Positions 26,125-64,000 are shown, numbered from the stretch's first letter. The stretch is 64,000 bases of DNA from Planctomycetota bacterium (GCA_965222115.1 CBDCTJ010000001.1:64001-128000), one strand, 5' to 3'. A program made the numbers and translations. The notes: a model not told the origin generated them from the letters alone.

Positions 26125-26385
26125 ATGGGCCTCGACATTACCTTTCTCCCGCTTGCTGAAATGCTCTTCGACTTGACCAAGTTCGGCGCCTTCATTGGTG
26201 CGGGCCTCATCACGATTGGCGCTGCCAAAGGCATTAGCGCCATTGGTGCCAAGGCCGTGGAATCGATCGCACGTCAGCCCGAAGCGGGCGGCAAGATCCA
26301 GACGGCGATGATCATTTCAGCAGCGCTCATTGAGGGATTCACCTTCTTCGCGCTCATCATCTGCTTCTTGAAGGCCGGCGCGTAA
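26125..26385 (+). CDS. atpE: F0 subunit c
   Basis: GGAG RBS; GAGL..IGA, ARQPE, ALIEG. Confidence 0.96.
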   Translation: MGLDITFLPLAEMLFDLTKFGAFIGAGLITIGAAKGISAIGAKAVESIARQPEAGGKIQTAMIISAALIEGFTFFALIICFLKAGA

Positions 26386-26517
26386 CAGCGTTCGTTCTTC
26401 GAGAAGCGTTCGTTGCGCCAACGCCCGCACGCCCGTCTCTTGAGGGGCATCGGAATCTTTGGTGCTACGTATGCGCAACCTTCGTGTTCTTTCCGCAATG
26501 GGTTTCGGAGTGAAACC

Positions 26518-27138
26518 ATGGTTATGAGTCGTGTGCTGCGAAGCAGTCTCGCACTGTTCTGCGTGCTTGTGGGGCTGGCGGTTCTATCGGCGGCCCCCTG
26601 TATGGCTGCGGACACTGGCGGTGACGCGGGTGGCAAGTTGTTGGACGTTGACTGGAAGGCCATGCTCACCACGGTGGCGGTCTTTGCCCTTCTGTTGTTC
26701 GTCTTGAGCAAGACGGCGTGGAAGCCCATCCTCAATGGGCTGAAGCAACGTGAAGAGACGATTCAGAAAGCGCTAGACGACGCCAAAGAGGCCAACGAGA
26801 AGGCGCGCCAGTTGATCACGGACTACGAGCAAAAACTCGAGACCGCGAAAGACGAGGCTGCAGCAATCGCCGATGAGGCCCGTCGTGACGCTCAGACGAT
26901 TCGATCGCAAATCGAAGAGGATGGGCGCAAGACGGCAGCCGAAACGGTAGCGCGCGCCAAGGTGGAGATCGAACAGATCGCTGCCAAGGCCCGCGAGTCG
27001 GTGGTCAACGAGGCAGCGGGTCTCGCCACGGCTGCGGCTGCAAAGATCGTTAAGGGTCGCCTGAGCGACGACGATCACGCCGCGCTCGTGAGTGATGTCG
27101 TGGCCGACTTTGCCGCCAAGCACCGGAAGGACGCCTAG
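26518..27138 (+). CDS. atpF: F0 subunit b with N-terminal signal-like extension
   Basis: TM then AWKPIL..L..RE..I and a long coiled coil. Confidence 0.92.
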   Translation: MVMSRVLRSSLALFCVLVGLAVLSAAPCMAADTGGDAGGKLLDVDWKAMLTTVAVFALLLFVLSKTAWKPILNGLKQREETIQKALDDAKEANEKARQLITDYEQKLETAKDEAAAIADEARRDAQTIRSQIEEDGRKTAAETVARAKVEIEQIAAKARESVVNEAAGLATAAAAKIVKGRLSDDDHAALVSDVVADFAAKHRKDA

Positions 27139-27755
27139 TGTCTAACCACGCAACCAACGAGGCGTCGGGAAGCGAACATCTCTTCGCCGACCCGGGCGGT
27201 GTGGTCTATGCGCGGGCGCTCTTCGAAGCGGTCGATGCCGCGAACGGCACCGAGGGGCTCAAGCATTCGTGCGAGATCCTCGAGTCGATGCGCGCCGCGT
27301 GGGACAAGGACCGCACGTTTCGTGCGTTCTTCATGGCGGCTGAGGTGCGCGACGGGCAAAAGCTCGAAGCGCTCAACAAGATTGTGTCCGAGCGCTTTCC
27401 CAAGCTCACGGCCAACTTCTTGCGCCTCCTGCTACGTCGCGAACGCTTGCACCTGTTGCCCGACATTGCCGTGTCGTTTCGCGCGTTGCTCGACGAGCGA
27501 GTGGGTCGCACGCCGGTCACACTCACCACCGCGGTGCCCGTGCCGGAAGATCAATTCTTGGCCTGGGAAGCACAGATCCGCGACACCCTTGGCGGGGAAC
27601 CCGACATTGAACACATTGTCGATCCCAGCATTCTCGCCGGCGCGATATTGCGCGTAGGCGATTCCGTCACCGACGGCAGCGCCCGTCGCCAACTCAACGA
27701 CCTTCGTAAGCGAATCATCGAAAGAGGAACGAGTCCCCATGCGGTTCAATCCTGA
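27138..27755 (+). CDS. atpH: F1 delta subunit
   Basis: YARALF, NFLRLL...[15 protein letters not shown]...DGS. Confidence 0.92.
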
Positions 27756-29277
27756 AGAAATCACCTCCGTCATCCGCAAAGAACTCGAAGAGTTCGATGC
27801 CCACGTAGATGTCGCCGAAGTCGGCACTGTCTTGGAAGTGGGTGACGGTATCGCCCGCATCTATGGCCTGGAGCGCGCGGGCGCGGGTGAAATGCTCGAA
27901 TTCGAAAACGGTGCGCGGGCCCAGGTCTTCAACCTGGAAGAGGGCTCGATTGGTGCCGTCGTATTCGGCGATGACCAAGACCTCAAGGAGGGCATGACGG
28001 TACGTCGTACGGGCAAATTGCTCGATATGCCCGTGGGCGAGGCCATGATTGGTCGTGTGGTCAACGCGCTGGGCGAGCCGCTCGACGGCAAGGGCCCCAT
28101 CAATACCACCGCCCGTCGTGAGATGGAGTTGATTGCGCCCGGCATCGCCGATCGCCAACCTGTAAAGCAGCCGCTGCAAACAGGTATCAAGGCCATCGAC
28201 GCCATGACGCCCATCGGTCGCGGTCAGCGTGAGTTGATCATTGGCGACCGTAAGACTGGCAAGACGGCCATCGCCGTAGACACCATCATCAATCAGAAGT
28301 CAGAAGATGTGACGTGTGTCTATGTGGCCGTGGGTCAGAAGGACTCCACCATTGCCGGCGTGGTTGCCGACCTCGAAGCCGCAGGTGCCATGGACTACAC
28401 CACCGTCGTTGTGGCTGGTGCCAGCGACCCGGCGCCCATGCAATACATCGCGCCGTATGCCGGTTGCGCCATCGCTGAAGAGCAGATGTACAAGCACGGT
28501 AAGCACACGCTTGTGGTGTATGACGACTTGAGCAAGCAGGCCGTTGCCTACCGCCAGTTGTCACTCCTACTTCGTCGTCCTCCGGGTCGTGAAGCCTATC
28601 CCGGCGACGTCTTCTACTTGCACAGCCGCTTGCTTGAGCGCGCCGTGAAGTTGAGCGACGACCTCGGTGGCGGCTCATTGACGGCGCTGCCCATCATCGA
28701 AACGCAGGAAGGTGAGGTCTCGGCCTACATCCCCACCAACGTGATTTCGATTACCGATGGTCAGATCTACTTGCAGCCCGACTTGTTCCGCGCCAATGTG
28801 CGACCCGCCGTCGACGTGGGTATCTCGGTTTCGCGTGTGGGTGGCTCGGCGCAGGTAAAGGCCATGAAGCACAAAAAGGTGGCGGGTGGTTTGCGACTCA
28901 ACCTCGCCGCCTTCCGTGAGCTCGAGGCCTTCGCGCAGTTGGGTACCGATCTCGACGCCACCACACAGGCACAGCTCGACCGCGGGTTCCGCATGGTTGA
29001 GATCTTGAAGCAGCCGCAATACAAACCGCTGGATGTGATGGACCAGGTCATCATCATTTATGCCGGTGCCAATGGCTTCCTCGATAATGTGGAGTTGAAA
29101 GACGTGGCCCGTTACGAGCAAGAAGTCCACGCCTACTTCCGCGACAACCACGCTGAGTTCCGCAACAAACTCGACGAGGAAAAGAGCCTCGACGAAGACA
29201 CCGAAACCGAGCTCAAGCGCGTCTTGGGTCTATTCACCGACGCGTTCGTGAAGGGCACGAGTCCCGATCCGCGTTAG
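27739..29277 (+). CDS. atpA: F1 alpha subunit
   Basis: [49 protein letters not shown]. Confidence 0.98.
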
Positions 29278-29330
29278 CCGGTTTCTCACGTTCACAAGTT
29301 CACAAAGCTTTCACCTACATCTGAGGCCCT

Positions 29331-30191
29331 ATGGCAAAGCCCCGCGCCATTCTCAAGCGACGCAAAGCCGTTCAGAACATCTCCAAGATCACCAAGACGA
29401 TGCAGATGATCGCCACGGCCAAGTTCAAACGCGCCAATGACCGCGCGGTTGCCGCGCGTCCCTACACGGACAAGCTCACCACGCTCATTGGCGAGTTGTC
29501 GGCGGCGGCAGGTGACTTCCACCACCCGCTAATGGACGCCCGCGAACCCGAGCGGGTCGCCGTCCTCGTCGTTAGCAGCAATCGTGGCTTGTGCGGCGGC
29601 TACAACAGCTCCATCGCCAAGGTATTGGCGGGCACACAAGAGGCCATCAACGAGCGGGGCCTTCCGACCGAACTGCACGCGTGTGGCAAGAAGATCAAGA
29701 GCATCTTGAAGTTTCGCGGGATCGACACGGACAGCTTTCACGACCACTTTGAAGACAAGCCCACGTTTGAAGAGGTGGATGCCATCGCCTCCGAGTTTAT
29801 CGAGCGCTACATCGCGGGTGAGATCGACGAGTTGCACGTTGTGTACACCAAGTTCAAGTCGGCGGCACGCCAAACGGCCGTGTCTGAGCAGGTGCTCCCG
29901 TTGAAGCAACCCGAACAAGCCGACGGCGGGGCACCCGACTACATCTATCACCCGGACGCCACGTCGATTTTGAGCGACTTGTTGCCGCGCAGTGTGCGCC
30001 TGCACTTGTTTCAGGCGTTCCTCGATGCCGCCGTGAGTGAACAGACCGCGCGCATGGTGGCTATGAAGGCCGCCACCGACAACGCGGGCGAGATGATCAA
30101 GGATTTGACGATGCTCTACAACCGCAGTCGTCAGACCCTCATCACCACCGAACTTTCCGAAATCATCGGCGGAGCCGCGGCGCTTGAGTAA
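29331..30191 (+). CDS. atpG: F1 gamma subunit
   Basis: KITKTMQMIA, NRGLCGGYN, SEQTARMVAMKAATDNA, ITTELSEI. Confidence 0.97.
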   Translation: MAKPRAILKRRKAVQNISKITKTMQMIATAKFKRANDRAVAARPYTDKLTTLIGELSAAAGDFHHPLMDAREPERVAVLVVSSNRGLCGGYNSSIAKVLAGTQEAINERGLPTELHACGKKIKSILKFRGIDTDSFHDHFEDKPTFEEVDAIASEFIERYIAGEIDELHVVYTKFKSAARQTAVSEQVLPLKQPEQADGGAPDYIYHPDATSILSDLLPRSVRLHLFQAFLDAAVSEQTARMVAMKAATDNAGEMIKDLTMLYNRSRQTLITTELSEIIGGAAALE

Positions 30192-30223
30192 GGCGCGCGA
30201 CTCTTTCGATTCACCAGTATTGA

Positions 30224-31696
<1,473 letters not shown>

Positions 31697-32615: not shown

Positions 32616-32855
32616 GATACTGTGTCAGGGACGAATTCACACTTTTCGTGGAGTGTGAGCGGGTTCTGTGTGGTCGTACGCAATTCATCTCACACAGAGA
32701 CGCCAAGTTGCAGAGGCGCAGAGAGCGCAAGCGTTAGGGGGAGCCGCTTGGTGAGAGCAGGCGTGGTTGGTTGTGGTGCGCTTCTTGGAAGAAGAAGGCT
32801 CTCACGAAGAACACTAAGATCACCAAGCGCAACCGTGTTGCGGGGAATATCCGGT
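32616..32855. repeat. Copy of dispersed repeat family (partners 42480-42610 and 53781-54160)
   Basis: GATACTGTGTCAGGGACGAATTCACACTTTT end motif; internal GAGAGCGCAAGCGTT...AAGAAGAAGGCTCT...AGATCACCAAGCGC shared with 53860-53975. Confidence 0.8.
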
Positions 32856-53780: not shown

Positions 53781-54160
53781 GATACGAAGTCGGGGCAACG
53801 TTCGCACTTTTTGAGTCGTAGTTGCCTGACCTCACGCAGAGCCGCAGTGGTGCCGAGGCGCGGAGAGCGCAAGCGTTGGTGGAAGCCGTATGGCGAGTTC
53901 GTACGCAACCTGTTGGGGAGCGCGTCTTGAAAGAAGAAGGCTCTTACGATGGACACCGAGATCACCAAGCGCGACTGTTTAGGGGCAAACTTGCCGGCTT
54001 GTAATCGGTTGCATCCCAAGAATTGAAATTAGGGCATTCGATCTTAGGCGGCGCGCCTCGAATCAAAGCCGGCCATGAGAGCGAGGTCTTTACTCTGCGC
54101 CTCTGCGTGAGGTCAAACACCTACGACCCGAAACGTGTGGATTTTGTCTTGACACCGTAC
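53781..54160. mobile_element. MITE/REP-like non-coding element with 66-bp imperfect terminal inverted repeats
   Basis: 53782-53847 vs reverse complement of 54095-54160: 49/66 identical without gaps (hand count), core TGACCTCACGCAGAG; lies between convergent genes; related copies at 32616 and 42480. Confidence 0.65.
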
Positions 54161-54177: not shown

Positions 54178-55731
54178 CTAAAACTCAAAGAACGCAATCA
54201 CCGCATGAATGAACACGACCGCTACCAGCGCCCAAAGCAACGTTTTGTGGATGCCCTCGATGACTTGTTTGGAGTTTCGCTTGGGACGTATGCCAATGCG
54301 AAAGGCAATCGCCGCTACGGCAAGCGCGCAAAGACCGACTTTGACGGCGATCCACACGAAATGACCGGCTTCGAGTTCGCGCGTAAAGTTGGCGGCGAAA
54401 AAGCGAACACTAAAACCGGGGTGAAGCACTAGATACACGAGCATCGACATGAAACCCGCGGCCGCAATCGAAGTAACGGTTGTGAGCCATGAGGCGAGAA
54501 TCTGCCCAAGAGCCGTGGGTTGGAGCAAGTGCCGTCGCAGCGGTATACGCATTAACCGCAGTGCGTCCACCTGGCGAGTCAAACTCATATGCCCGATATG
54601 AGCCGCCGCCGCGGCGCCGAGTTTGGCGGCGAGCAAAACCGACACCATCATCGGCATGGCAATGCGTGTGAACACCATGCCAAGCCCGGCCAATAGATCG
54701 TCTTGCACGAGTGGTCCGGTGTACTTGCGCTTAGGCAGGTGCTCAAAGAGGAAGTACGTTCCGGTGAGTGCCACCATCAGCGCACATGTTCCCGTGAACA
54801 TCACGACGCCCAGGCGCACATCTCGGCGCAACACGTGGCGAAAGCGCGGTCCATCGAGCGGATGGGCCATGCGCGCAAGCCCAATTGGAAGCGCCGCAAG
54901 CGAGCCCAGATCGGCGCCCGCATCGGCTAATGCCAACGACGCCTTGCGCCAACGATGCGCTGCGCGTGCTGCCAAGGACGCACGCTTGGGGGGCGCCTCC
55001 AGCGCAGGCTCACGCACTTCCATGATTTCTTCAACGCGGGCCCAAGACTCTGGGTTGGCATCGAAGCGGCGCAATACGCGATCGCGAGGATCAAGCACGA
55101 GGATGACATCCACCGCACCGCGAAACGCTTCGTAGTCGTGTGAAATGGCAAGGCTCAAGCGTCGATGGCTGTCTTGAAAGGCGCCTAGAACACTCTTGAC
55201 GGCCGCAGGATCAAGTCCCGTGGTGGGCTCGTCATAGACCAGCACCTGGGCGCCACGAAGTAGCGTGCGGCAAATCGCAATACGCATGCGTTCGCCACCG
55301 GAGCACTCATGGACCTTGCGTTCCAAGTGGTCGAGACCGAGGCTTGAGGCCAACGCGGATCGCTCCTCCGGATCGTCACTTCCGAAGCGCAGATTTTGGT
55401 CCACCGTCAAGTCGTCGAATAAGCCGAGCGCATGCAATTGAAATACTGCGCCCAATTGCATATCCATGAATTCGGGTGAGGCGCCCAACAATTCGTCGCC
55501 TTGAAAGGTGAGCGAGCCTTCCACACGCAAACCCGGTGTAGCCGGACCGGCGAAACCAAAGATGAGGTCAGTAAAGAGCGACTTACCACTACCCGATGGA
55601 CCCACCAGCAACACACGTTCGCCTTCGCGCAACTCAATGTCGCTGGGCGCAATGAGCATGCGTCCTTGTACATCCACGCGAAGTCCGCGCGCGCGCAGCA
55701 GCACGCCTTCCGATGGTGATGAGGACGTCAC
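54178..55731 (-). CDS. Fused ABC ATPase (MlaF-like) plus MlaE-family permease
   Basis: Walker A GPSGSGKS, signature CSGGERMR, Walker B LVYDEPTTGLDP, ISHD; MlaE-like PMMVSVLLAAKLGAAAAAHIGHMSLTRQVDALRLM. Confidence 0.88.
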   Translation of the reverse strand: MTSSSPSEGVLLRARGLRVDVQGRMLIAPSDIELREGERVLLVGPSGSGKSLFTDLIFGFAGPATPGLRVEGSLTFQGDELLGASPEFMDMQLGAVFQLHALGLFDDLTVDQNLRFGSDDPEERSALASSLGLDHLERKVHECSGGERMRIAICRTLLRGAQVLVYDEPTTGLDPAAVKSVLGAFQDSHRRLSLAISHDYEAFRGAVDVILVLDPRDRVLRRFDANPESWARVEEIMEVREPALEAPPKRASLAARAAHRWRKASLALADAGADLGSLAALPIGLARMAHPLDGPRFRHVLRRDVRLGVVMFTGTCALMVALTGTYFLFEHLPKRKYTGPLVQDDLLAGLGMVFTRIAMPMMVSVLLAAKLGAAAAAHIGHMSLTRQVDALRLMRIPLRRHLLQPTALGQILASWLTTVTSIAAAGFMSMLVYLVLHPGFSVRFFAANFTRELEAGHFVWIAVKVGLCALAVAAIAFRIGIRPKRNSKQVIEGIHKTLLWALVAVVFIHAVIAFFEF

Positions 55732-56945
55732 TTGGATTCCGACTCCGATGCGGGTGATGTCGGCTCCGGCGACGCTGGCTCCGGAAAGGACGGCGCTTGA
55801 CGCTCTTCATCTCGATGGAGCAATAGCAGTGCGGTCTTCTTATTCAGAAGATTGTGCCGAAGCATGCTGGTAAAGCGGATGCGAAAGCCGCCGTGGGGCG
55901 ATTCGATGAATGTGTCGGCGGCGCGGCGCATAAGCACCTGGCCGTCCTTTTCGAGTCGCTTTCCGTGGCGTTCAAGAATCGGCTGCATGAGTTCATCGCG
56001 GAATGCGTGCCAAAGTTCGCCGGTGACCCATTCCTGCAAGGCACCGCCGTGCTCGCCGAGGCCCTCACCCACCTCGCTAAACACGCGCTTTTGATTGGCG
56101 CTCCACCATTCAAGCGATGCGTCACGTGCAACGGGCACAACTTCATCCTTGAGCCCCTTCGCGTCGCCGCTTACGACCTTCACGAGTAGCCCGAGACGAT
56201 CCAGCAGATCAAACTTCTTCTTGATGCGCTTGGTCACGTGGTTGGCGAGGTTATCGAGCAACGGCTCGAGTCGAGCGAACAGCGTTTTGCCAATCGATTG
56301 AAAGAGCTGCTTGGCTTCTGTGTCTTCCGTGGGATTGATGCGTTTCAAAAACGACGGCAACTGCTTCTCGGCTTCCGGAAGGATGGCTTCCTTCCACGTG
56401 AGCTTCATGCGCTCAGCGGCGAATGCCGCGAATTCACGGGCCGCCTCTTCGGGCACCGCCAATCGAAATGCCTCGCCAAGCTTTCGACTGGGAGGAAAGC
56501 CTTCGATGCGCCAAGGTCCTTCGGCTGCCACCTGGGGCGCGAAGCGAATGCGGATACGCACCCCCTGCGCCTTTACGTCGCGGTCCTCATCCTTGGCCAC
56601 CACAAGATTGGGGGTGACCTCCACCACATGACCGATGGGGCGCGCCGCCCCCTGTTCATCAAAGCCGTAGACGGGAAGCCCCTTGTGAACGCCTTTTGAA
56701 AAGGGGAGCGAAATCACAATGTCGTCATCGCGTTCGCCATCAAACGCGCTACCCACGGCGGCGCTCACGCGCGATACAGCACGCGTAAATGTGGGACGCG
56801 TCACGCCAACAAGCGTCGCAATGCCAAGCGTGCCAAGAAGCAGGCTCCCCATGGCAACTCGACGCCCCTCGCTCCGCCGCGCTCGAACGAGCGGTGACGG
56901 GACAGGCGGCGTGTCCGATTGTTCGTCGCTACTTGGCGGCGTCAT
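55728..56945 (-). CDS. Divergent MCE/MlaD-like protein with long helical C-terminus
   Basis: One TM, then FSKGVHKGLPV...PIGHVVEV resembling the MCE motif; GTGA overlap with ABC-permease fusion; start approximate. Confidence 0.65.
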   Translation of the reverse strand: MTPPSSDEQSDTPPVPSPLVRARRSEGRRVAMGSLLLGTLGIATLVGVTRPTFTRAVSRVSAAVGSAFDGERDDDIVISLPFSKGVHKGLPVYGFDEQGAARPIGHVVEVTPNLVVAKDEDRDVKAQGVRIRIRFAPQVAAEGPWRIEGFPPSRKLGEAFRLAVPEEAAREFAAFAAERMKLTWKEAILPEAEKQLPSFLKRINPTEDTEAKQLFQSIGKTLFARLEPLLDNLANHVTKRIKKKFDLLDRLGLLVKVVSGDAKGLKDEVVPVARDASLEWWSANQKRVFSEVGEGLGEHGGALQEWVTGELWHAFRDELMQPILERHGKRLEKDGQVLMRRAADTFIESPHGGFRIRFTSMLRHNLLNKKTALLLLHRDEERQAPSFPEPASPEPTSPASESESK

Positions 56946-58542
56946 CCTGCTCGCCACGTTCCCCTTCGTCCTTTGGCGCCTCCTTCTTCTTACTGGCTTC
57001 ACTCCGATTGGGATCGTCGTCGTTCGCACTTGACCGAATGAACTTGGCTGTGGTCACGCGGTAGTTCTTCGCAATACGTTCATCGATCGCCTTGAGCTCA
57101 TTCGCGGGAATCGCAATGTCGCTTTCCAATCCCTCAAGTTGAAGTACGTGAAACTCGCCCTGGGGTGATTTGAGGGCCTCCTCGACGTCGCCAATCGTGA
57201 GAATGCGCTTGCCATTGACCGAACGCAATGCGTGATTGCGCATAGTCTCAAAGCCTTTGTTGGACGGATCCGGTAGGACGTGATCGAGAATCACAATGCG
57301 TCGCCCGGGCTCCCCCGTATCCCACCCATCGCGTTCCGACAATCGACGAATGATGTCGGCGCCACCGCCGCGCCCCGAACTCATCCCGCCGTGCATTTGC
57401 AAAATGACGTAACCGCCCACCACCAAGAATTCGGTACGGCCATCGTCTGCAGATTCCGGAATCAGCTCGTGTTCAGGGGCACGCTTGCCCAGCTTGAGTG
57501 TGACATCTTTGGCCGCACCGTCCCGCAGGACGCGCACCGTGACGGAATCACCTGCGTGGCGTTGGCCGCGCAGCAGATACCAGAAGTAGAGTCGTCCATG
57601 AACCTTGTGGCGAAACATACCTTCGTCGTCGATATCGTAACCATCGACATGGGTAACGACATCGCCCGGTTGAAACGTGCCATGGCCGATGTAACCCGGT
57701 GTCACGCGTGAAATAACCACACCGTGTTCACTGTCGGGAACCTTGAAATGCTTCCGAAGATCGTCGCGCATGAGGTAGTGAATCCACTGCCCGCGACCGG
57801 GAAGTCCGGCGTAGTGACCATCGGCAAGATCGTCGAGGTAGTGGCGGATGGAATCCAGCGAGAGAACCGTGGCCTCCTGCCGAAACCGATTCGTACTCTG
57901 AACCATCCCCACGAGCTTGCCATCGCGCATCACCGCTTGACCATCGCCCGAATCTGACAGTGTCGTCTTGCAGCGGTTTACAAGCGTGTTGCGCATGGCT
58001 TCAACGCGCGCGACGGTGGCCTTGTAGCGCTCCACCATGTTGTCTTGCCCGAGCTGCGCGACGTCCAACGCATCGTCGAGCTTTGCCGACACGCCGAGCG
58101 CTAACGGCTTGAGGCGTTCTTTGAGTTCCTCGTCCAGCACGTCCACCAGCGCAAGCCCCATGTCGCGATCTTTGTGGTGGAGCTTGGCCTCAAAACGGCG
58201 CGTGCTATTAGCCTCCATGACCTCAATAGAAATGGCACGTGACACGAGTCGCGAAAACGTAAGGATGCGACCCGGCGCCACCACCACACCGCGACCCAAA
58301 CGCGTGCTCACCGACGTCTTGCGCCACGGCTCCCGCAGGTCATAGCCTTGACTCGTAACGCGCAACTTCACAAGCGCGGAACGTAACAACGCCGCCTCGT
58401 CACCCGCGGTGGGCTCGGGCGCGGGTTTGGCGGGTGTTTCCTTTGCCTGCGCCCTAGGCGCAAGTGCAATCGCGCCTACCACCGCCAACATGAATAGAAG
58501 ACAACGTCGTTGCGCCGATAGTGACGATCGCTGACCGCTCAT
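56929..58542 (-). CDS. Deg/HtrA-family PDZ protease homolog lacking catalytic His and Ser
   Basis: Paralog of upstream protease; ILTFSRLVS replaces LVSNAHVVS and LSDSGDGQAV replaces INPGNSGGPV; two PDZ-like regions; signal peptide. Confidence 0.8.
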   Translation of the reverse strand: MSGQRSSLSAQRRCLLFMLAVVGAIALAPRAQAKETPAKPAPEPTAGDEAALLRSALVKLRVTSQGYDLREPWRKTSVSTRLGRGVVVAPGRILTFSRLVSRAISIEVMEANSTRRFEAKLHHKDRDMGLALVDVLDEELKERLKPLALGVSAKLDDALDVAQLGQDNMVERYKATVARVEAMRNTLVNRCKTTLSDSGDGQAVMRDGKLVGMVQSTNRFRQEATVLSLDSIRHYLDDLADGHYAGLPGRGQWIHYLMRDDLRKHFKVPDSEHGVVISRVTPGYIGHGTFQPGDVVTHVDGYDIDDEGMFRHKVHGRLYFWYLLRGQRHAGDSVTVRVLRDGAAKDVTLKLGKRAPEHELIPESADDGRTEFLVVGGYVILQMHGGMSSGRGGGADIIRRLSERDGWDTGEPGRRIVILDHVLPDPSNKGFETMRNHALRSVNGKRILTIGDVEEALKSPQGEFHVLQLEGLESDIAIPANELKAIDERIAKNYRVTTAKFIRSSANDDDPNRSEASKKKEAPKDEGERGEQDDAAK

Positions 58543-60044
58543 CGGTTCTCTCCTTCGCTCTTCGTCTCGGAGACGCCTTCGACATGTCGATGCGTGGTGA
58601 TGCCGAACTTCTTGCAGATCTCGTCGTGTGCGCCATCCGCTGTCCCACGATTGATTACGAGCGGCGGTGTATTGACGCCTTCAAATGCGATATGGATGAC
58701 GTCACCGCCGGCATCCACGAGGTGAACGAAATGAGCAAAGTCTTTGGGCTCTTTGCCATTCACCGTTGCCACGATGTCATTGCGATACGACTGGTAACGC
58801 GTGGTGCGATGCGGAAAGACTTTGCTGATCACGACGAGTTGTTCGCGCGTCTCCCCCTCTTTCGCCTCCAATCGGTAGTACTGATTGAAGTAATAACGCA
58901 GTTCGGTGCTGGCACCGGATTGAGAGAGATAGTTAGACGTGACGGGGCAGAACATGTAGCCCCCCCACACCATGAATTCCGGCTTCTTGAGGTATCGCGT
59001 GGCCGGCGTCATGCGCGCTTCCCAGGCCTTGAGCGTTACTGTGATCTCTTTGGGCTCTCCGCCGCGACGAATGTTGAGCTTCACGGTTTCGCCCACTTGC
59101 TTGTCTTCTACAACATGCGTGTACTCAAAGAAGTCGTCGTCGATCTCAATCGTTCCGTCGTTCTGAACCGGATGCCCGTCGATGGCCTGCAAAACATCGT
59201 TGCGCTGGACGTGACCGACGGCGCTTGCATAGGGCATGGCCTTCAAAATCAGCACGCCCGACTCGCCATCGGGGACGCCGAGATACTTACGCAGCGCGTC
59301 GTTCTCGAGTTTCTCGGTGTAAAGCCCAAGCTCCGGATACCCGTGATAGACGTTGTCCTCGACGTCGCGCAGAAAGTGGCGCACCACGGAAGGCGGAATC
59401 ATGTAGCCAATGCTCTGCGAAAAGAACTGCCCCTGAAACGCGACGCCCACGACCTTGTCGCCTTGAATCACGGGGCCGCCGCTGTTGCCGGGATTGATGG
59501 CCGCATCGATTTGAATCGCAAGGTGTTCATCGGCATTGGAGTGTACGTAGTTCTGCACTTCAATGCGCGACACCACGCCTTCGGTCATGCTCAACTTACT
59601 ACCGCCCGTGGGATACCCCACGGTGGCGACCGTAGATCGCATGGCCGGTCGATCACCAATCTCAAGGGGCTTCATGCCCTCGAAGAACGACTTGTCGTCG
59701 GTGGTGAGCATGGCGAGGTCGCAGTCGTTTCCAGCAAACAGCACGCGGGCTTGATAGCGCTTGGGTGAATCGGCGCGTTTGACCATCAAGTTGCGTGCGT
59801 CACTCACCACGTGGGCATTGCTCACTAGGCGATCACCGCCAATGAAAAACGCGCTACCGCCCGACATCGATGCGCGCGGGCGCTGCCAAGGACGCACGTA
59901 GTCTTCTGGCTGTGAGGTGGTAAACACCTGCACGACCGAGGCGCGCATGGCCTTGATATCAAGTTCCGGGCGCGTTGCCGTTTCGGCCCGAAGTGGTGTG
60001 GAAGTCGCGAACAGGCACGCGACGACGAAAAGAAAGATTCGCAT
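58539..60044 (-). CDS. Deg/HtrA-family serine protease with two PDZ domains (Deg2-type)
   Basis: Signal peptide; SNAHVV, DCDLAML, QIDAAINPGNSGGP, GVAFQ; PDZ DVLQAIDG. Confidence 0.93.
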   Translation of the reverse strand: MRIFLFVVACLFATSTPLRAETATRPELDIKAMRASVVQVFTTSQPEDYVRPWQRPRASMSGGSAFFIGGDRLVSNAHVVSDARNLMVKRADSPKRYQARVLFAGNDCDLAMLTTDDKSFFEGMKPLEIGDRPAMRSTVATVGYPTGGSKLSMTEGVVSRIEVQNYVHSNADEHLAIQIDAAINPGNSGGPVIQGDKVVGVAFQGQFFSQSIGYMIPPSVVRHFLRDVEDNVYHGYPELGLYTEKLENDALRKYLGVPDGESGVLILKAMPYASAVGHVQRNDVLQAIDGHPVQNDGTIEIDDDFFEYTHVVEDKQVGETVKLNIRRGGEPKEITVTLKAWEARMTPATRYLKKPEFMVWGGYMFCPVTSNYLSQSGASTELRYYFNQYYRLEAKEGETREQLVVISKVFPHRTTRYQSYRNDIVATVNGKEPKDFAHFVHLVDAGGDVIHIAFEGVNTPPLVINRGTADGAHDEICKKFGITTHRHVEGVSETKSEGENR

Positions 60045-60094
60045 CGGCGAAGTGTACTCGCAGCCCATGCCAGCGGCGCTGCGGGAATGGGTTC

Positions 60095-60745
60095 CTATCC
60101 CAAATCGGGTGGTGGTTCATAGGGCGCCACGGCTCCTTCGGCCATTTCGTGCAGCTTCTTGCGGTGCGTGTCGATGAGGGCATCGGGTCGGCAGCTAAAG
60201 AGGCGACGGCCATCTAAGTCCAAGACCTCAAATCCCACGGTTTGCGTGTGATCCACCACCACTTGAAAATCCTCGGCACCGGCGTCGAGCAGCGCGCGAT
60301 AGACCAACGCTCGATCACGCTTGGCCACGCGCACTTCCGACGGTCGATCCATGGTGTTCGCAGCGAGCTTGGCGAAGTGAAACTCGATGGCACGTTCGTA
60401 TCGAGGCGAACCGGGCAACGCGTTGAGTGCCATACGCACGCGGGCTTCAAAGCGCTCAACCAACGAACCGCTACTCGTGGCCAAGACCGCGTTAACTTCA
60501 CGCTCTGCCGATCGCATGCAGGCCGCTTCCGCCGTGGCGCCGCGTTTCGATCCCTGTTCCCGCGCCGCCGCCGCGAGCGATTCCAACTCGTCCTCCGCCG
60601 CACGCACAACATCTCGTGCGCGATTCAATGCGCGGTCATGCACACGTCGGCAGGAAACCTTGGCGTCGGCCAACACGGTGTCGATCAATTTCTGAAACGG
60701 GTTGATCGCGCTAGCGGATGATGGGGACGATGGATCGTGCGTCAT
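60095..60745 (-). CDS. A/V-type ATPase subunit E-like protein
   Basis: N-terminal coiled coil KLIDTVLADAK...SAERE, then Y..I, V...D, GFEVLDLDGR C-terminal domain; ATGA overlap with subunit I. Confidence 0.75.
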   Translation of the reverse strand: MTHDPSSPSSASAINPFQKLIDTVLADAKVSCRRVHDRALNRARDVVRAAEDELESLAAAAREQGSKRGATAEAACMRSAEREVNAVLATSSGSLVERFEARVRMALNALPGSPRYERAIEFHFAKLAANTMDRPSEVRVAKRDRALVYRALLDAGAEDFQVVVDHTQTVGFEVLDLDGRRLFSCRPDALIDTHRKKLHEMAEGAVAPYEPPPDLG

Positions 60746-62712
60746 GTCGTCTCCCTTCTGCTCGACGAAGAAGCATCCGTTGCGCACTGAAACGGTGAGA
60801 ACGGACGCGTGAGTCCACGCGTGCCGAAGGCCACGTCATACGGCAATCCCATCGCCACGTGCGCGGGATCGGCCACGCAAGCAACAAGGCCCACAAGCAC
60901 CGCGACCGGCGCAAGAATCCACGCCCACACACTACCTGAGGCCAATCCCGCAAATCCTTGGTCGGCAATCCATGCTGACAACGACACGACCGCAATGAGT
61001 CGAATCATCACTGTGGTTTCGAGCGTTAGGCGCATCAACGGATGTCGTCCGCGATCCAACCAAAGTAATACGGAGAGCGGTGCAACCAGCCAGGGGACGA
61101 CCCACCATGCTGTTTCGCTGCCAGACACTGTTTCGCTGCCAAACACAATGGCGGGCCACTGCCACACCATCCACCCCACACCGGCAACGGTTACGTATTC
61201 GAGTGCGGCGCGAAGTCGAGACGGTGCGGCACGCCCTTTTAGCAACGCAGCGAGTGCACAGGCGCCAGCCCACACGGCACATGCAAACGCAATCCAACCC
61301 ATGAAGAGACCGGTGCCTCTCACGATGTCGAGGTGCAATACGTCGCCCGGGGCGCTGCCGAGTGCGTGTCGTATGGCCGCCTCCGGTGCGGCACCCCAGG
61401 TTCCGTCAAGTAGTGCTTGCCCCGCTGGCCCCGCCACCCGTCCGAAGCACACGCCAAAGATTGTGGCAACCACTCCGGCGCTCAACGCCATCCACCCCAC
61501 ATCGCGACGTGGTGAACTTCGTCGTGCGGAAAACCAAAGTAGGGCGCCCAACGCCATCAACAGCACGCCCGCACCAACGTCGCTCCAGGCCGCGCCACAA
61601 GCCAGCGGCGCTGTGGTTGCCAAGGCCGCGGTCACCGAGTGCTGCCCCATGGCTCGCGGATGCAATCCAACCAACGCCGAAAGCGGCAACTCGGCGACGC
61701 GATGGACAACGGTGGGCGCGTCGGTGGATTCGTCGAGCGGACGCACAACAACGACGTCGCCATGTTCGTCATGGATCGCGCGACGAAGTGTTTCTTCTTC
61801 TTCCGCGGGTACAAAGACGCGCGCTGCAACGACGTGGCGCGTTGCGGCAAGTTTGTTGCGCGCGTTTCTTCGATCCTGGGCGTCCTGTAGCGTGCTCCAA
61901 AGCAGACGCCCGCGCTGCCCCACTTCCAACACCGTCGTAGCGAGTCCGGCACGCGCGTCGCGTTCCGCCGCGCGTGCCTCTTCGCGCATCGACTGAAAGC
62001 GCTCTCGTGCTGCTTGAAGGGGGACGCCCTTTGTGTCGGAAGGCAACGTAAGGCTTGTTGCACCGTACGCAACGGCCGCGCGGTCGGCTTTCTCGGGAAG
62101 TGCTGCACCGGATCGAACCACGACGGCATGACAGCGATGCCCCTCGGCACGTGCAACGAGCAGGCCGAGCCTGCGAAAGCGTTTGGCCAATGCGCGCGCC
62201 GCGCGACGACCGCCGCGAAGCACGAAAAAATGGCCGCCAACCGATGTTTCGCCGCTCTTTTCAAGGGCGCGAAATCCGGCGTAGAGCCCTTCGGCCGATT
62301 CCAACGACGCCTCGGCGGATTTGAGGGACTCGAGCGATGCGTGGAGTCGCTTGGCAATCGTTTCGGCTTCTTCTTGCTGGCTCAAGATGGCGGCGCGGTG
62401 CATATGCCCCGGGCCGAGTTCCCAGTGGATGGTTTGGGAACGAACGTGCAAGCCAGTGTCTTGCTTTAGCGTATGAGCCGGCGGGAGCACGCGCTCAACG
62501 CCCTGCAACCAGCGAAACGCTTCGCCTCGCAGGACATCGCTCTCGAGTTCATCGGTCGTGGGCGCGGGGCGCGCAATGCCCTCAACACCTTCCAAGCCAC
62601 GTATGGCGTCGGCTAGGTGACACACACCCGTGCCTTGAAGCGTTGCAATCCACCCGTCGAGTTCGTCGCGTGGCCCAAGAATCTCAAGATGCACAAGGTC
62701 TTTACTGCGCAT
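60742..62712 (-). CDS. A/V-type ATPase subunit I (a)-like protein, degenerate
   Basis: LEILGP...LQGTGVCHL N-terminus; KLAATRHV..RVFVP; APT; CGAAWSDVGAG; IFGVCFG; MIRLIAV; C-terminal RPFSPF; several TM helices. Confidence 0.78.
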   Translation of the reverse strand: MRSKDLVHLEILGPRDELDGWIATLQGTGVCHLADAIRGLEGVEGIARPAPTTDELESDVLRGEAFRWLQGVERVLPPAHTLKQDTGLHVRSQTIHWELGPGHMHRAAILSQQEEAETIAKRLHASLESLKSAEASLESAEGLYAGFRALEKSGETSVGGHFFVLRGGRRAARALAKRFRRLGLLVARAEGHRCHAVVVRSGAALPEKADRAAVAYGATSLTLPSDTKGVPLQAARERFQSMREEARAAERDARAGLATTVLEVGQRGRLLWSTLQDAQDRRNARNKLAATRHVVAARVFVPAEEEETLRRAIHDEHGDVVVVRPLDESTDAPTVVHRVAELPLSALVGLHPRAMGQHSVTAALATTAPLACGAAWSDVGAGVLLMALGALLWFSARRSSPRRDVGWMALSAGVVATIFGVCFGRVAGPAGQALLDGTWGAAPEAAIRHALGSAPGDVLHLDIVRGTGLFMGWIAFACAVWAGACALAALLKGRAAPSRLRAALEYVTVAGVGWMVWQWPAIVFGSETVSGSETAWWVVPWLVAPLSVLLWLDRGRHPLMRLTLETTVMIRLIAVVSLSAWIADQGFAGLASGSVWAWILAPVAVLVGLVACVADPAHVAMGLPYDVAFGTRGLTRPFSPFQCATDASSSSRRETT

Positions 62713-63064
62713 CGTGTTCGTCTTCCCCGCACAGGTAGCGCAGCGCATCGTCGACCAGCGCGGTCAACGTCGTTTCGCTGGTTTCGATCCACCGATCGAT
62801 GGACTCACGCGCATGCCGCACGCGCGACGCCGCACGTGCCTCGGCATCGGCCACCGCAAGCTGTTCAGCCGCACGTGCCGCTTCGTCTATCGTCCCCTGG
62901 CCGGCTTCTTGGATGCGAACGGCATCGGACTCGGCTTGCGTGACGCGCTCGGCCGCGTCGCGCTCGGCGTCTTCGATCTCGTCCCGCGCCCAATCTTCGA
63001 CCGCAAGAAAACTGGGCAACGCACTTCGGCCAGGAATCGGAGGCGGGAAGTCGGGACCATCCAT
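62702..63064 (-). CDS. A/V-type ATPase subunit H/G-like peripheral-stalk protein
   Basis: 120-aa Ala/Glu-rich coiled coil (VEDWARDEIEDAERDAAERVTQAESDA) overlapping the start of subunit I. Confidence 0.7.
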   Translation of the reverse strand: MDGPDFPPPIPGRSALPSFLAVEDWARDEIEDAERDAAERVTQAESDAVRIQEAGQGTIDEAARAAEQLAVADAEARAASRVRHARESIDRWIETSETTLTALVDDALRYLCGEDEHDAQ

Positions 63065-63115
63065 GGCCCGAGAATACGCGAAACCGCCCCCCGGCAAATC
63101 TTCCCCTGTGTGGCG

Positions 63116-64000
63116 CTATCTCAGGGGGACGTCTTGGAACCGCAATGTGATGGTGCCCTGATCTTCGTGCTCAAACCACGTGATCGCAACGGCCTTGGGA
63201 TCGCCTGTACCGAGTCGGTAGACGCGCGCCGGCATATGCAGCATGCCATCGGCGCTCACGCTCCGACCCCCCGTGACATACATGGGATGCCAGCGTCCGT
63301 CGGCCGCCTGAATCGCAATCGAGGCCGACTGCCTTGCAACGTCGCTCGGTAGATGGGCACGCGCCTCGGCCGTGTAGCTGCCGCGCGGACCTTGGCTCAC
63401 GGACTCAAGCGATCGCAGCTCAATGCGTTTTCCGCGTTTCGACGTGAGTCGCGCGCCTGATGCATCCTTGTGTGCCGGAAGAGTCTCGAAGTCATTGAAT
63501 GTGACGACGCGTTTGCCGTGACGCAAACGTAATGGAAACGCAAGCTCCAAGCTCGCGAGGGTCGATCCGCATTTGGCATGGTCTGCGCGCAGGGACACGT
63601 CGATCGTGCGACGAAACGTGCCCTGCGAAACGCCCATGACGCTGGAGCGGGTCTTCGCAATCGGTGACGAGAATGTGTTTCCCTGCTTGTCTTTGGCTTC
63701 CACAATGCGCGGTGGAGAAAACTGACGCAACGAAACGCTGGGCGCGAAATCGAGTTCGAGCTTGAGGGCGTAGAGCGGTAACGTCGGTGCACCGAAGCTC
63801 TTCGTGGAAGAGACCGACACAACGCGCGCGCGCAGGGGCCCCGTTGTAGCGGATGGAATGGGAGTTCCACCTTCGATGGCCGGCGGCATGGCACGAATCG
63901 AAACCATCCCCGCACGGGTGGGCGGACCCGCCACATCCAACTTGGTTGCTCGTAGCACCTCATCCAAGGCGGTGAAGTAGCTCACGTTTCGCACGTCAGC
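63116..64000 (-). CDS. Hypothetical protein (5'-partial), beta-rich
   Basis: Frame open to window edge; no recognisable ATPase motifs. Confidence 0.7.
   Translation of the reverse strand, partial: ADVRNVSYFTALDEVLRATKLDVAGPPTRAGMVSIRAMPPAIEGGTPIPSATTGPLRARVVSVSSTKSFGAPTLPLYALKLELDFAPSVSLRQFSPPRIVEAKDKQGNTFSSPIAKTRSSVMGVSQGTFRRTIDVSLRADHAKCGSTLASLELAFPLRLRHGKRVVTFNDFETLPAHKDASGARLTSKRGKRIELRSLESVSQGPRGSYTAEARAHLPSDVARQSASIAIQAADGRWHPMYVTGGRSVSADGMLHMPARVYRLGTGDPKAVAITWFEHEDQGTITLRFQDVPLR

Follow-up and report, generated by a model that had tools for sequence, protein, structure and literature searches.

An operon in the genome of a Planctomycetota bacterium (GCA_965222115.1) appears to encode a transporter of the MCE/ABC type together with unprecedented accessory genes, which resemble those for the stator subunits of V/A-type rotary ATPases. 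The window, the whole stretch of DNA that was analysed, has 64,000 nucleotides (nt; CBDCTJ010000001.1:64001-128000) and comes from a genome assembly of 7 contigs that is 90 % complete. Seven minus-strand open reading frames (ORFs), numbered here g1 to g7, were listed within positions 54178-63097, and the region is one tightly packed same-strand operon around a conserved five-gene unit, g1-g2-g3-g6-g7. Based on profile and structure comparisons, g1, g2 and g3 are the stator-like genes, g6 is believed to encode a divergent MCE protein and g7 a fused ABC ATPase and permease. The other two genes, g4 and g5, are believed to encode a protease and its inactive paralogue, and are outside the conserved unit.

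Conservation of the unit was investigated in 41 related genomes, including this one, from which nine loci were fetched. In addition, a scan of the GTDB collection with one genome per species identified 12 loci, all of them in metagenome-assembled genomes of Planctomycetota and partly in the same genomes. Counting the present genome, g2 was found in 14 of the 41 (13 of the 24 others in the same family). Both g6, using a profile search, and full-length g7 were each found in the same 15 genomes, these being the 14 with g2 and one other (G018), in which no g2 was found and g6 begins 538 nt from the contig end. In none of the 16 genomes outside the family was g2, g6 or full-length g7 found.

When all eight proteins, from g1 to g7 and the upstream gene g0, were compared with the loci by tblastn, the order (g0)-g1-g2-g3-g6-g7 was present in every locus with enough DNA. 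In all ten of the distinct relatives' loci extending from g2 to g7, the five genes g1-g2-g3-g6-g7 are tightly packed. Judging from coordinates, three further genomes (G004, G014, and G021) have this order as well, and in G011 and G012 the two halves of the cluster are on different short contigs. In 14 genomes the reading frames have stayed open at full length, with g2 conserved at 33-42 % identity, and the alignments contain 72 (g2) and 34 (g3) invariant columns. The spacer between g3 and g6 is ~40-280 nt in relatives, which is looser than the other junctions.

Transporter genes and stator-like genes

The product of g7 is a predicted fusion of MlaF and MlaE in one chain. Both of its Pfam domains score above the cut-off (ABC_tran, E 3.3e-22, 80 bits; MlaE, E 6.6e-23, 81.9 bits), and the Walker A, Q-loop, signature, Walker B (D-E), and H-loop motifs are invariant in ten sequences. 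A search of 5.8 billion proteins with the permease half identified 60 homologues, all from this clade, and both domains are present in 57 of these. In one genome (G008), g7 is read in two overlapping frames, for which either a frameshift or a sequencing error is possible.

The gene g6 adjoins g7 in all of the relatives' loci examined, and its product is not recognized by sequence searches. Pfam, NCBIfam, and PDB sequence searches gave nothing significant for g6 or for g0, and the Pfam MlaD family (PF02470) matched none of 22 members of the g6 family at E≤5. In the AlphaFold2 model of g6 (predicted local distance difference test score 82.9), an N-terminal membrane helix is followed by a beta domain at residues 76-150 and a final strand at residues 373-378, with ~210 amino acids (aa) of long helices inserted ahead of this last strand. 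The ten best rows from VIA-align are all MlaD, LetB, or Mce1 chains (for example, root-mean-square deviation 3.0 Å over 75 residues), with Z of 7.5-7.8, where values below 8 alone can reflect a common arrangement. Likewise, the best Foldseek match is Mce1A (E 0.02), and a local hhalign comparison with six canonical MCE proteins of Planctomycetota aligned the anchor and the MCE domain (P 6e-4). Although each score is modest, the model, the structural matches, and the profile alignment together allow g6 to be accepted as a divergent MCE protein, in which the N-terminal membrane anchor is followed by a predicted MCE beta-barrel of seven strands.

A canonical MlaE is encoded elsewhere in the genome of all 15 carriers of the cluster, and in 40 of the 41 related genomes. 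Replacement of the canonical Mla system by the cluster was considered, as matches to canonical MlaD looked complementary; the presence of canonical MlaE in every carrier does not support this, and the cluster is therefore a second MCE system. Carriers have one canonical MlaE and the divergent fused one. In a sister family (G025-G035) there are two or three genes for MlaE of canonical type (~152-236 bits), each beside recognizable MCE genes. The public annotations examined label the proteins of the cluster as hypothetical or as 'ABC transporter permease'.

Of the stator-like genes, g2 gives the clearest result, and is a probable remote homologue of V/A-ATPase subunit I (a) in which the essential membrane Arg is kept. 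A profile of 11 family members matched subunit I of the Thermus thermophilus V/A-ATPase in the PDB (E 3.6e-13). With hhalign, g2 was aligned to 11 bona fide subunit I proteins of Planctomycetota over columns 2-433 (416 columns, probability 98.5, E 2.5e-15); the aligned part includes the first membrane helices as well as the soluble N-domain. Among 1.84 billion representative proteins, 26 matched at E≤1e-30, and these are the protein's own family. Beyond a gap in the scores, the search reached proteins of ~620-670 aa, and all 12 of those that were tested pass the Pfam V_ATPase_I cut-off. Neither g2 nor any of four other own-family members tested matched this Pfam family (PF01496), and against the NCBIfam subunit I model g2 scored 41.5 bits, where the cut-off is 777.

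The essential Arg of subunit I is in a long tilted helix, transmembrane helix 7 (TM7), where it faces the c-ring. An Arg is invariant in all 11 sequences of the g2 family, and when six canonical proteins were aligned it fell on this TM7 Arg in all five alignments that reach the region. The C-terminal motifs of the two families correspond in profile alignments and the hydropathy patterns are similar, with g2 having the same plan, a cytoplasmic N-domain joined to a membrane domain of several helices. The last membrane segment of the g2 family contains a new invariant motif, A-D-P-A-H-x-A-M-G-x-P-Y-D.

The products of g1 and g3 resemble V/A-ATPase subunits G and E, of which they would be remote homologues, and here the scores are weak. 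With a profile of eight homologues of g1, the top four PDB matches are Thermus V-type subunit G (E 0.03-0.05), and six of eight family members match Pfam V-ATPase_G_2 (PF16999), all below the cut-off (best E 0.0011); helical, low-complexity composition can inflate such scores. For g3, an hhalign comparison with three bona fide E subunits of Planctomycetota is full length (188 columns, P 1.4e-4, probability 52). The only four PDB matches of g3 are all Thermus subunit E (E 0.7-2.2), and one of eight family members matches Pfam vATP-synt_E (PF01991) at E 0.016, below the cut-off. In g3, the N-terminal part is a long helix and the C-terminal part a conserved globular domain. Neither g1 nor g3 has an N-terminal hydrophobic stretch, and both show faint scores to FliH (E 0.06-0.07). 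Gene order adds to these comparisons, with g1 directly preceding the I-like g2. In bona fide V/A operons of Planctomycetota the order is G?-C-I-K-F-E-A-B-D, and g1-g2-g3 (G-I-E) is this order minus C, K, and F.

No rotor or catalytic head was found to accompany these genes. The c-ring and subunits C/d, D, F, A, and B of the V-type were not found in the genome or in the family, the assemblies of which are incomplete, and V-type subunit D was above the cut-off in none of 29 genomes of the family. The genome-wide search with PF01496 gave no match. The single match to ATP-synt_C in the genome is inside an F-type operon of the same window (~26182-31327). There are four matches to ATP-synt_ab, one pair inside this F-type operon and a second, unclassified pair on contig C7. 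Upstream of the window there are no hidden rotor genes, only g0 and an EF-G paralogue. The stator-like set is rotor-less as far as the incomplete assemblies allow, which agrees with the preliminary description of this DNA for the genome as assembled; at 90 % completeness, the absence of the rotor and head is not proven. The F-type ATP synthase operon, with matches to the c, alpha, and beta subunits, is ~30 kb from the stator-like genes.

Role of the stator-like genes and origin of the protease pair

It is proposed that the stator-like genes g1-g3 have lost their rotary partners and now encode accessory subunits of the g6/g7 transporter, a reading that is favoured here and is given about an even chance of being correct. 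In known enzymes, the N-domain of subunit I, the E/G stalks, and the ABC ATPase domains are all cytoplasmic. The I-like g2 would be a neighbour of the MlaE domain in the cytoplasmic membrane, with its cytoplasmic N-domain and the E/G-like coiled-coil stalks reaching the ATPase domains of g7. There, the stator-like proteins may brace or regulate these domains, in a role much like that of peripheral stalks towards the A3B3 head. The molecules transported would most likely be lipids or other hydrophobic compounds, carried between the outer envelope and the cytoplasmic membrane, and this second system would work alongside the canonical Mla-type one. A role as accessory subunits is favoured because the predicted location of the stator-like proteins matches that of the ABC ATPase domains, because g1-g3 co-occur strictly with g6/g7 and have no alternative partner that is conserved, and because, even at such low identity, the frames remain full length and many positions invariant.

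A bolder version of this proposal is possible, if somewhat improbable. In this version, the stator is reused without rotor or head as an integral part of the transporter and the ABC ATPase domains replace the A3B3 head. The kept Arg and the invariant Asp/His/Asp motif may then let the proton gradient gate, or help to drive, lipid movement, which would make the complex a non-rotary chimera of two energy-converting machines that are not otherwise related.

Several observations weigh against accessory subunits of the transporter. The case for binding is a genomic one, from which physical association, contact sites, and substrate are deduced. The E-like and G-like assignments come from weak scores, under the Pfam cut-offs. 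In g2, the second Arg of canonical subunit I (TM8) is replaced by Gly in the whole family, and the C-terminal membrane half compared alone with canonical subunit I gives only E 0.08. The g2 of one carrier (G020; L021:2301-3632) is shortened to 443 aa, from which it seems possible that a complete membrane domain is not required. An asparagine-synthase-like gene is present at the junction between g3 and g6 in G008 (L016:5111-6556, the same as L045:10896-12341). With the protease pair of the present genome, this makes insertions at the junction in two lineages, showing that the halves of the cluster tolerate separation. Finally, all carriers are from one family, therefore the shared order and co-occurrence are partly due to common descent and are not independent observations.

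Two further features of these loci were noted. In the shortened g2 of G020, ~110 aa of the soluble domain are missing and the stretch from the Arg helix to the final motif is much shorter. The junction between g3 and g6 appears to be a recurrent insertion point.

The strongest alternative, although rather unlikely, is that two independent systems share one operon. The G-, I-, and E-like proteins would then form a membrane complex of their own, for example a scaffold or an ion pathway, serving some other partner. The MCE/ABC transporter would work alone, and the link between the two would be co-regulation or inherited order. Restriction of the carriers to one family is consistent with this, as synteny can be inherited, as are the two entries of foreign genes between g3 and g6 and the looser spacing at this junction in relatives. 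It is less readily reconciled with the strict co-occurrence across the 41 genomes, to which the one apparent exception (G018) is at a contig end, or with persistence of the order when identity of g2 is only 33-42 %. In addition, no other candidate partner is conserved beside g1-g3, and the ~230-aa and ~240-aa ORFs present in some relatives have no homologue here.

The preliminary description had favoured a joint machine, in which the stator, the protease and pseudoprotease, and the MCE/ABC transporter act together in envelope quality control, or in degradation and uptake of lipoproteins or lipids. This is now highly doubtful. Within the present genome there are reasons to consider it, since g4 and g5 are embedded in the operon with overlapping junctions (4 nt for g4/g5 and 17 nt for g5/g6), and theirs is the only such Deg pair found in the genome. 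Signal-like sequences are present at the N-termini of both proteins, and therefore they probably share a compartment with the MCE domain.

The two proteins are predicted to be an active protease of Deg2/Deg9 type, with an intact triad, and a pseudoprotease. Trypsin_2, PDZ_2, and PDZ_3 domains were identified in g4 using Pfam, and its alignment with chloroplast Deg2 from the PDB (E 1.9e-81) includes the His, Asp, and Ser of the triad. By BLASTP, g5 is 25 % identical to g4 (E 3e-39), and its Trypsin_2 score is below the cut-off. At the triad positions of the g4/g5 alignment, His is replaced by Arg, Asp by Gly, and Ser by Asp.

Comparison with relatives separates this pair from the rest of the operon. 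By tblastn at E≤1e-3, Deg genes were found in none of the ten relatives' loci that span g2 to g7. A g5-like gene beside a g4-like gene is present in G001, G003, G004, and G012, on contigs apart from that of the cluster. Likewise, the pair is present in ten of ten genomes of the sister family, whereas the cluster was not found in any of 11 genomes of that family. The Deg pair is therefore an independent two-gene module and a later insertion, having moved into the junction of g3 with g6 only in this lineage. The g6 of a near relative (P0005, 82 % identical) has the same N-terminal extension that overlaps g5 here, which hints that the same insertion may be present in that relative. The proteins available from the two nearest relatives (P0002, P0003, P0005, and P0180) have 76-95 % identity. 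An example of a Deg pair outside the cluster is at G003:C96:29683-32564. Adjacency of an active Deg gene and a triad-less paralogue across two families suggests an obligate pairing of active and dead proteins, which would be independent of the cluster. As a conserved machine, the combination of three modules is largely refuted. Of the earlier proposal, the link of the stator-like genes with the MCE/ABC genes still stands, being seen in every relative examined, and the protease pair drops out, as its genes are unlinked from the others in relatives. In the present genome g4 and g5 may be co-transcribed passengers or, at most, a local add-on.

It is very improbable that g1-g3 are functionless remnants, in decay, of a V/A-ATPase operon that has been lost, as might be supposed from the missing rotor, head, and central-stalk genes, the scores under the curated family cut-offs, and the one genome with a shortened g2, because full-length frames in 14 genomes and the invariant columns of g2 and g3 at this level of divergence need purifying selection, and the junctions are of the translationally coupled type.

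Locus layout and flanking elements

The coordinates of the operon and of its flanking elements are given in Table 1. Gene starts are those best supported by alignment with homologues and, for g4, the signal-peptide start. Neighbouring genes overlap by 11 nt (g1/g2) or 4 nt (g2/g3 and g6/g7), in addition to the overlaps of the protease pair given above. The spacing between g3 and g4 is 50 nt, and g0, on the same strand, ends 51 nt ahead of the start of g1. These ORF coordinates confirm the preliminary description as to the seven same-strand genes, their overlaps, the single 50-nt gap, and the upstream neighbour ~50 bp away, and the Pfam, profile, and structure comparisons bear out its naming of the stator, protease/pseudoprotease, and MCE/ABC modules.

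Table 1. Positions of the operon genes and flanking features. Coordinates are those of the window unless a contig (C) or locus (L) is named.
Feature	ORF	Coordinates	Strand	Description
g0		63116..64000, runs off window end; full gene C1:127116-128507	minus	463 aa, predicted secreted protein
g1	62702-63097	62702-63064 (conserved start 63064)	minus	120 aa, helical, subunit G-like
g2	60742-62748	60742-62712 (start 62712)	minus	656 aa, putative divergent V/A-ATPase subunit I (a) homologue
g3	60095-60787	60095-60745 (start 60745)	minus	216 aa, subunit E-like
g4	58539-60068	58539-60044 (start 60044)	minus	predicted periplasmic HtrA serine protease of Deg2/Deg9 type
g5		56929-58542	minus	predicted catalytically dead g4 paralogue (pseudoprotease)
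g6	55728-57029	55728-56945 (start 56945)	minus	predicted divergent MCE-domain protein
g7		54178-55731	minus	predicted single-chain ABC transporter, MlaF-like ATPase and MlaE-like permease
Inverted-repeat element		53783-54159; arms 53783-53847 and 54095-54159	no strand	65-nt arms, 75 % complementary, 247 nt between
~230-aa ORF family (relatives)		L042:6841-7548, L040:5845-7487, L046:5392-6081, L049:5698-7469, L043:6841-7593, L039:4836-5459		soluble, between g0 and g1

A consensus scan of the locus, using patterns that may not fit this phylum, identified no sigma-70-like promoters, against 3.0 expected. The same limit applies to terminator-like hairpins, which are present at chance level (10, against 11.6 ± 4.4 expected), with none in the g3-g4 gap proper. 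Three sequencing runs from one study contain this DNA, and no RNA run that contains it is listed.

The upstream gene g0 is present in relatives either adjacent to the cluster or 1-3 kb away, and may belong to the conserved unit, perhaps as a periplasmic partner of the MCE system. Its product has an N-terminal signal-like hydrophobic stretch and no Pfam family, with sub-threshold matches to HEAT_2 in five of seven members and to STN in three of seven. An EF-G paralogue and then g0 (G000:C1:127116-130541; L042:3096-6546) form a pair that is kept upstream of the cluster in relatives. Between g0 and g1, several relatives have one or two copies of soluble ORFs of ~230 aa that share the motif C-P-L-Y-P-G-x-T-C and have no Pfam match. 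These ORFs, and a membrane ORF of ~240 aa after g7 in some relatives, were considered as core parts of the system and rejected, as they have no homologue in this genome.

The inverted-repeat element that had been reported downstream of g7 is present, in the space that separates g7 from the next gene, which is convergent. A blastn search with it gave 28 rows in the genome, which are the self match, two arm-to-arm matches, and 25 partial and diverged matches (71-87 % identity). The first half of the element belongs to a dispersed repeat family, with one copy at ~32689-32836 of the window. The element is not part of the machine.

Novelty and comparison with known systems

To our knowledge, there is no description of subunits a/I, E, and G of a rotary ATPase stator working apart from the rotor. 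In full-text searches of the literature (including PMC10665443 and bioRxiv 10.64898/2026.10.01.756066), no account was found of V-ATPase stator-like genes together with MCE or Mla systems. If the transporter does use the stator-like proteins as accessory subunits, the cluster would be a clear case of a stator gaining a new role, with a rotor-less set tied to an MCE/ABC transporter. It would also be a new kind of accessory module for MCE lipid transporters, the energy coupling and regulation of which remain debated, and a natural system in which to study the capabilities of subunit a and the peripheral stalks by themselves. The divergent MCE family and the MlaF-MlaE fusion are missed or mislabelled by routine annotation. 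The reach of these findings is limited, so far, to one family of uncultured Planctomycetota and to genomic evidence.

The closest comparison for the transporter is MlaFEDB of E. coli and relatives. There, as in the cluster, an MlaE-type permease, an ABC ATPase, and a membrane-anchored MCE protein are encoded together, and the N-in anchor with a periplasmic MCE domain is like that of g6. The cluster differs in that its ATPase and permease are fused, and in that g6 is undetected by Pfam and has ~210 aa of helices before the last strand. No STAS-type MlaB is seen in the cluster, and three stator-like genes are in the accessory position instead. The mycobacterial Mce1 and Mce4 systems, with YrbE, MceG, Mce proteins, and the accessory LucB and Mam proteins, share with g6 an MCE domain followed by long helices, and share with the cluster the presence of extra accessory membrane proteins. 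However, the cluster has one MCE gene rather than six, a fused ATPase-permease, and accessories of a wholly different origin.

For the stator-like genes, the comparison is with the I/a, E, and G subunits in the stator of the Thermus thermophilus V/A-ATPase. Homology of g2 to subunit I/a extends along its length, the TM7 Arg is kept, and the relative gene order of g1-g3 is the same. Unlike that stator, g1-g3 are without rotor or head genes as far as found, the TM8 Arg has become Gly, g2 contains a new motif, and the scores are under the curated cut-offs. A peripheral-stalk relative that works outside ATP synthase is already represented by FliH of the flagellar and type III export ATPase complex, to which g1 and g3 may be compared; its homology to the peripheral-stalk proteins of rotary ATPases is established, and is also stated in the abstract of a preprint (bioRxiv 10.1101/2021.01.01.425057). 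FliH holds the FliI hexamer, a relative of the F/V-ATPases, whereas the only ATPase of the cluster is the ABC domain, and the cluster also contains a homologue of subunit a/I. Lastly, g4 resembles chloroplast Deg2 and Deg9 in its triad and PDZ_3 domain, and differs from them in being paired with the dead g5, in a pair that is inserted into a stator/MCE cluster in this genome only.

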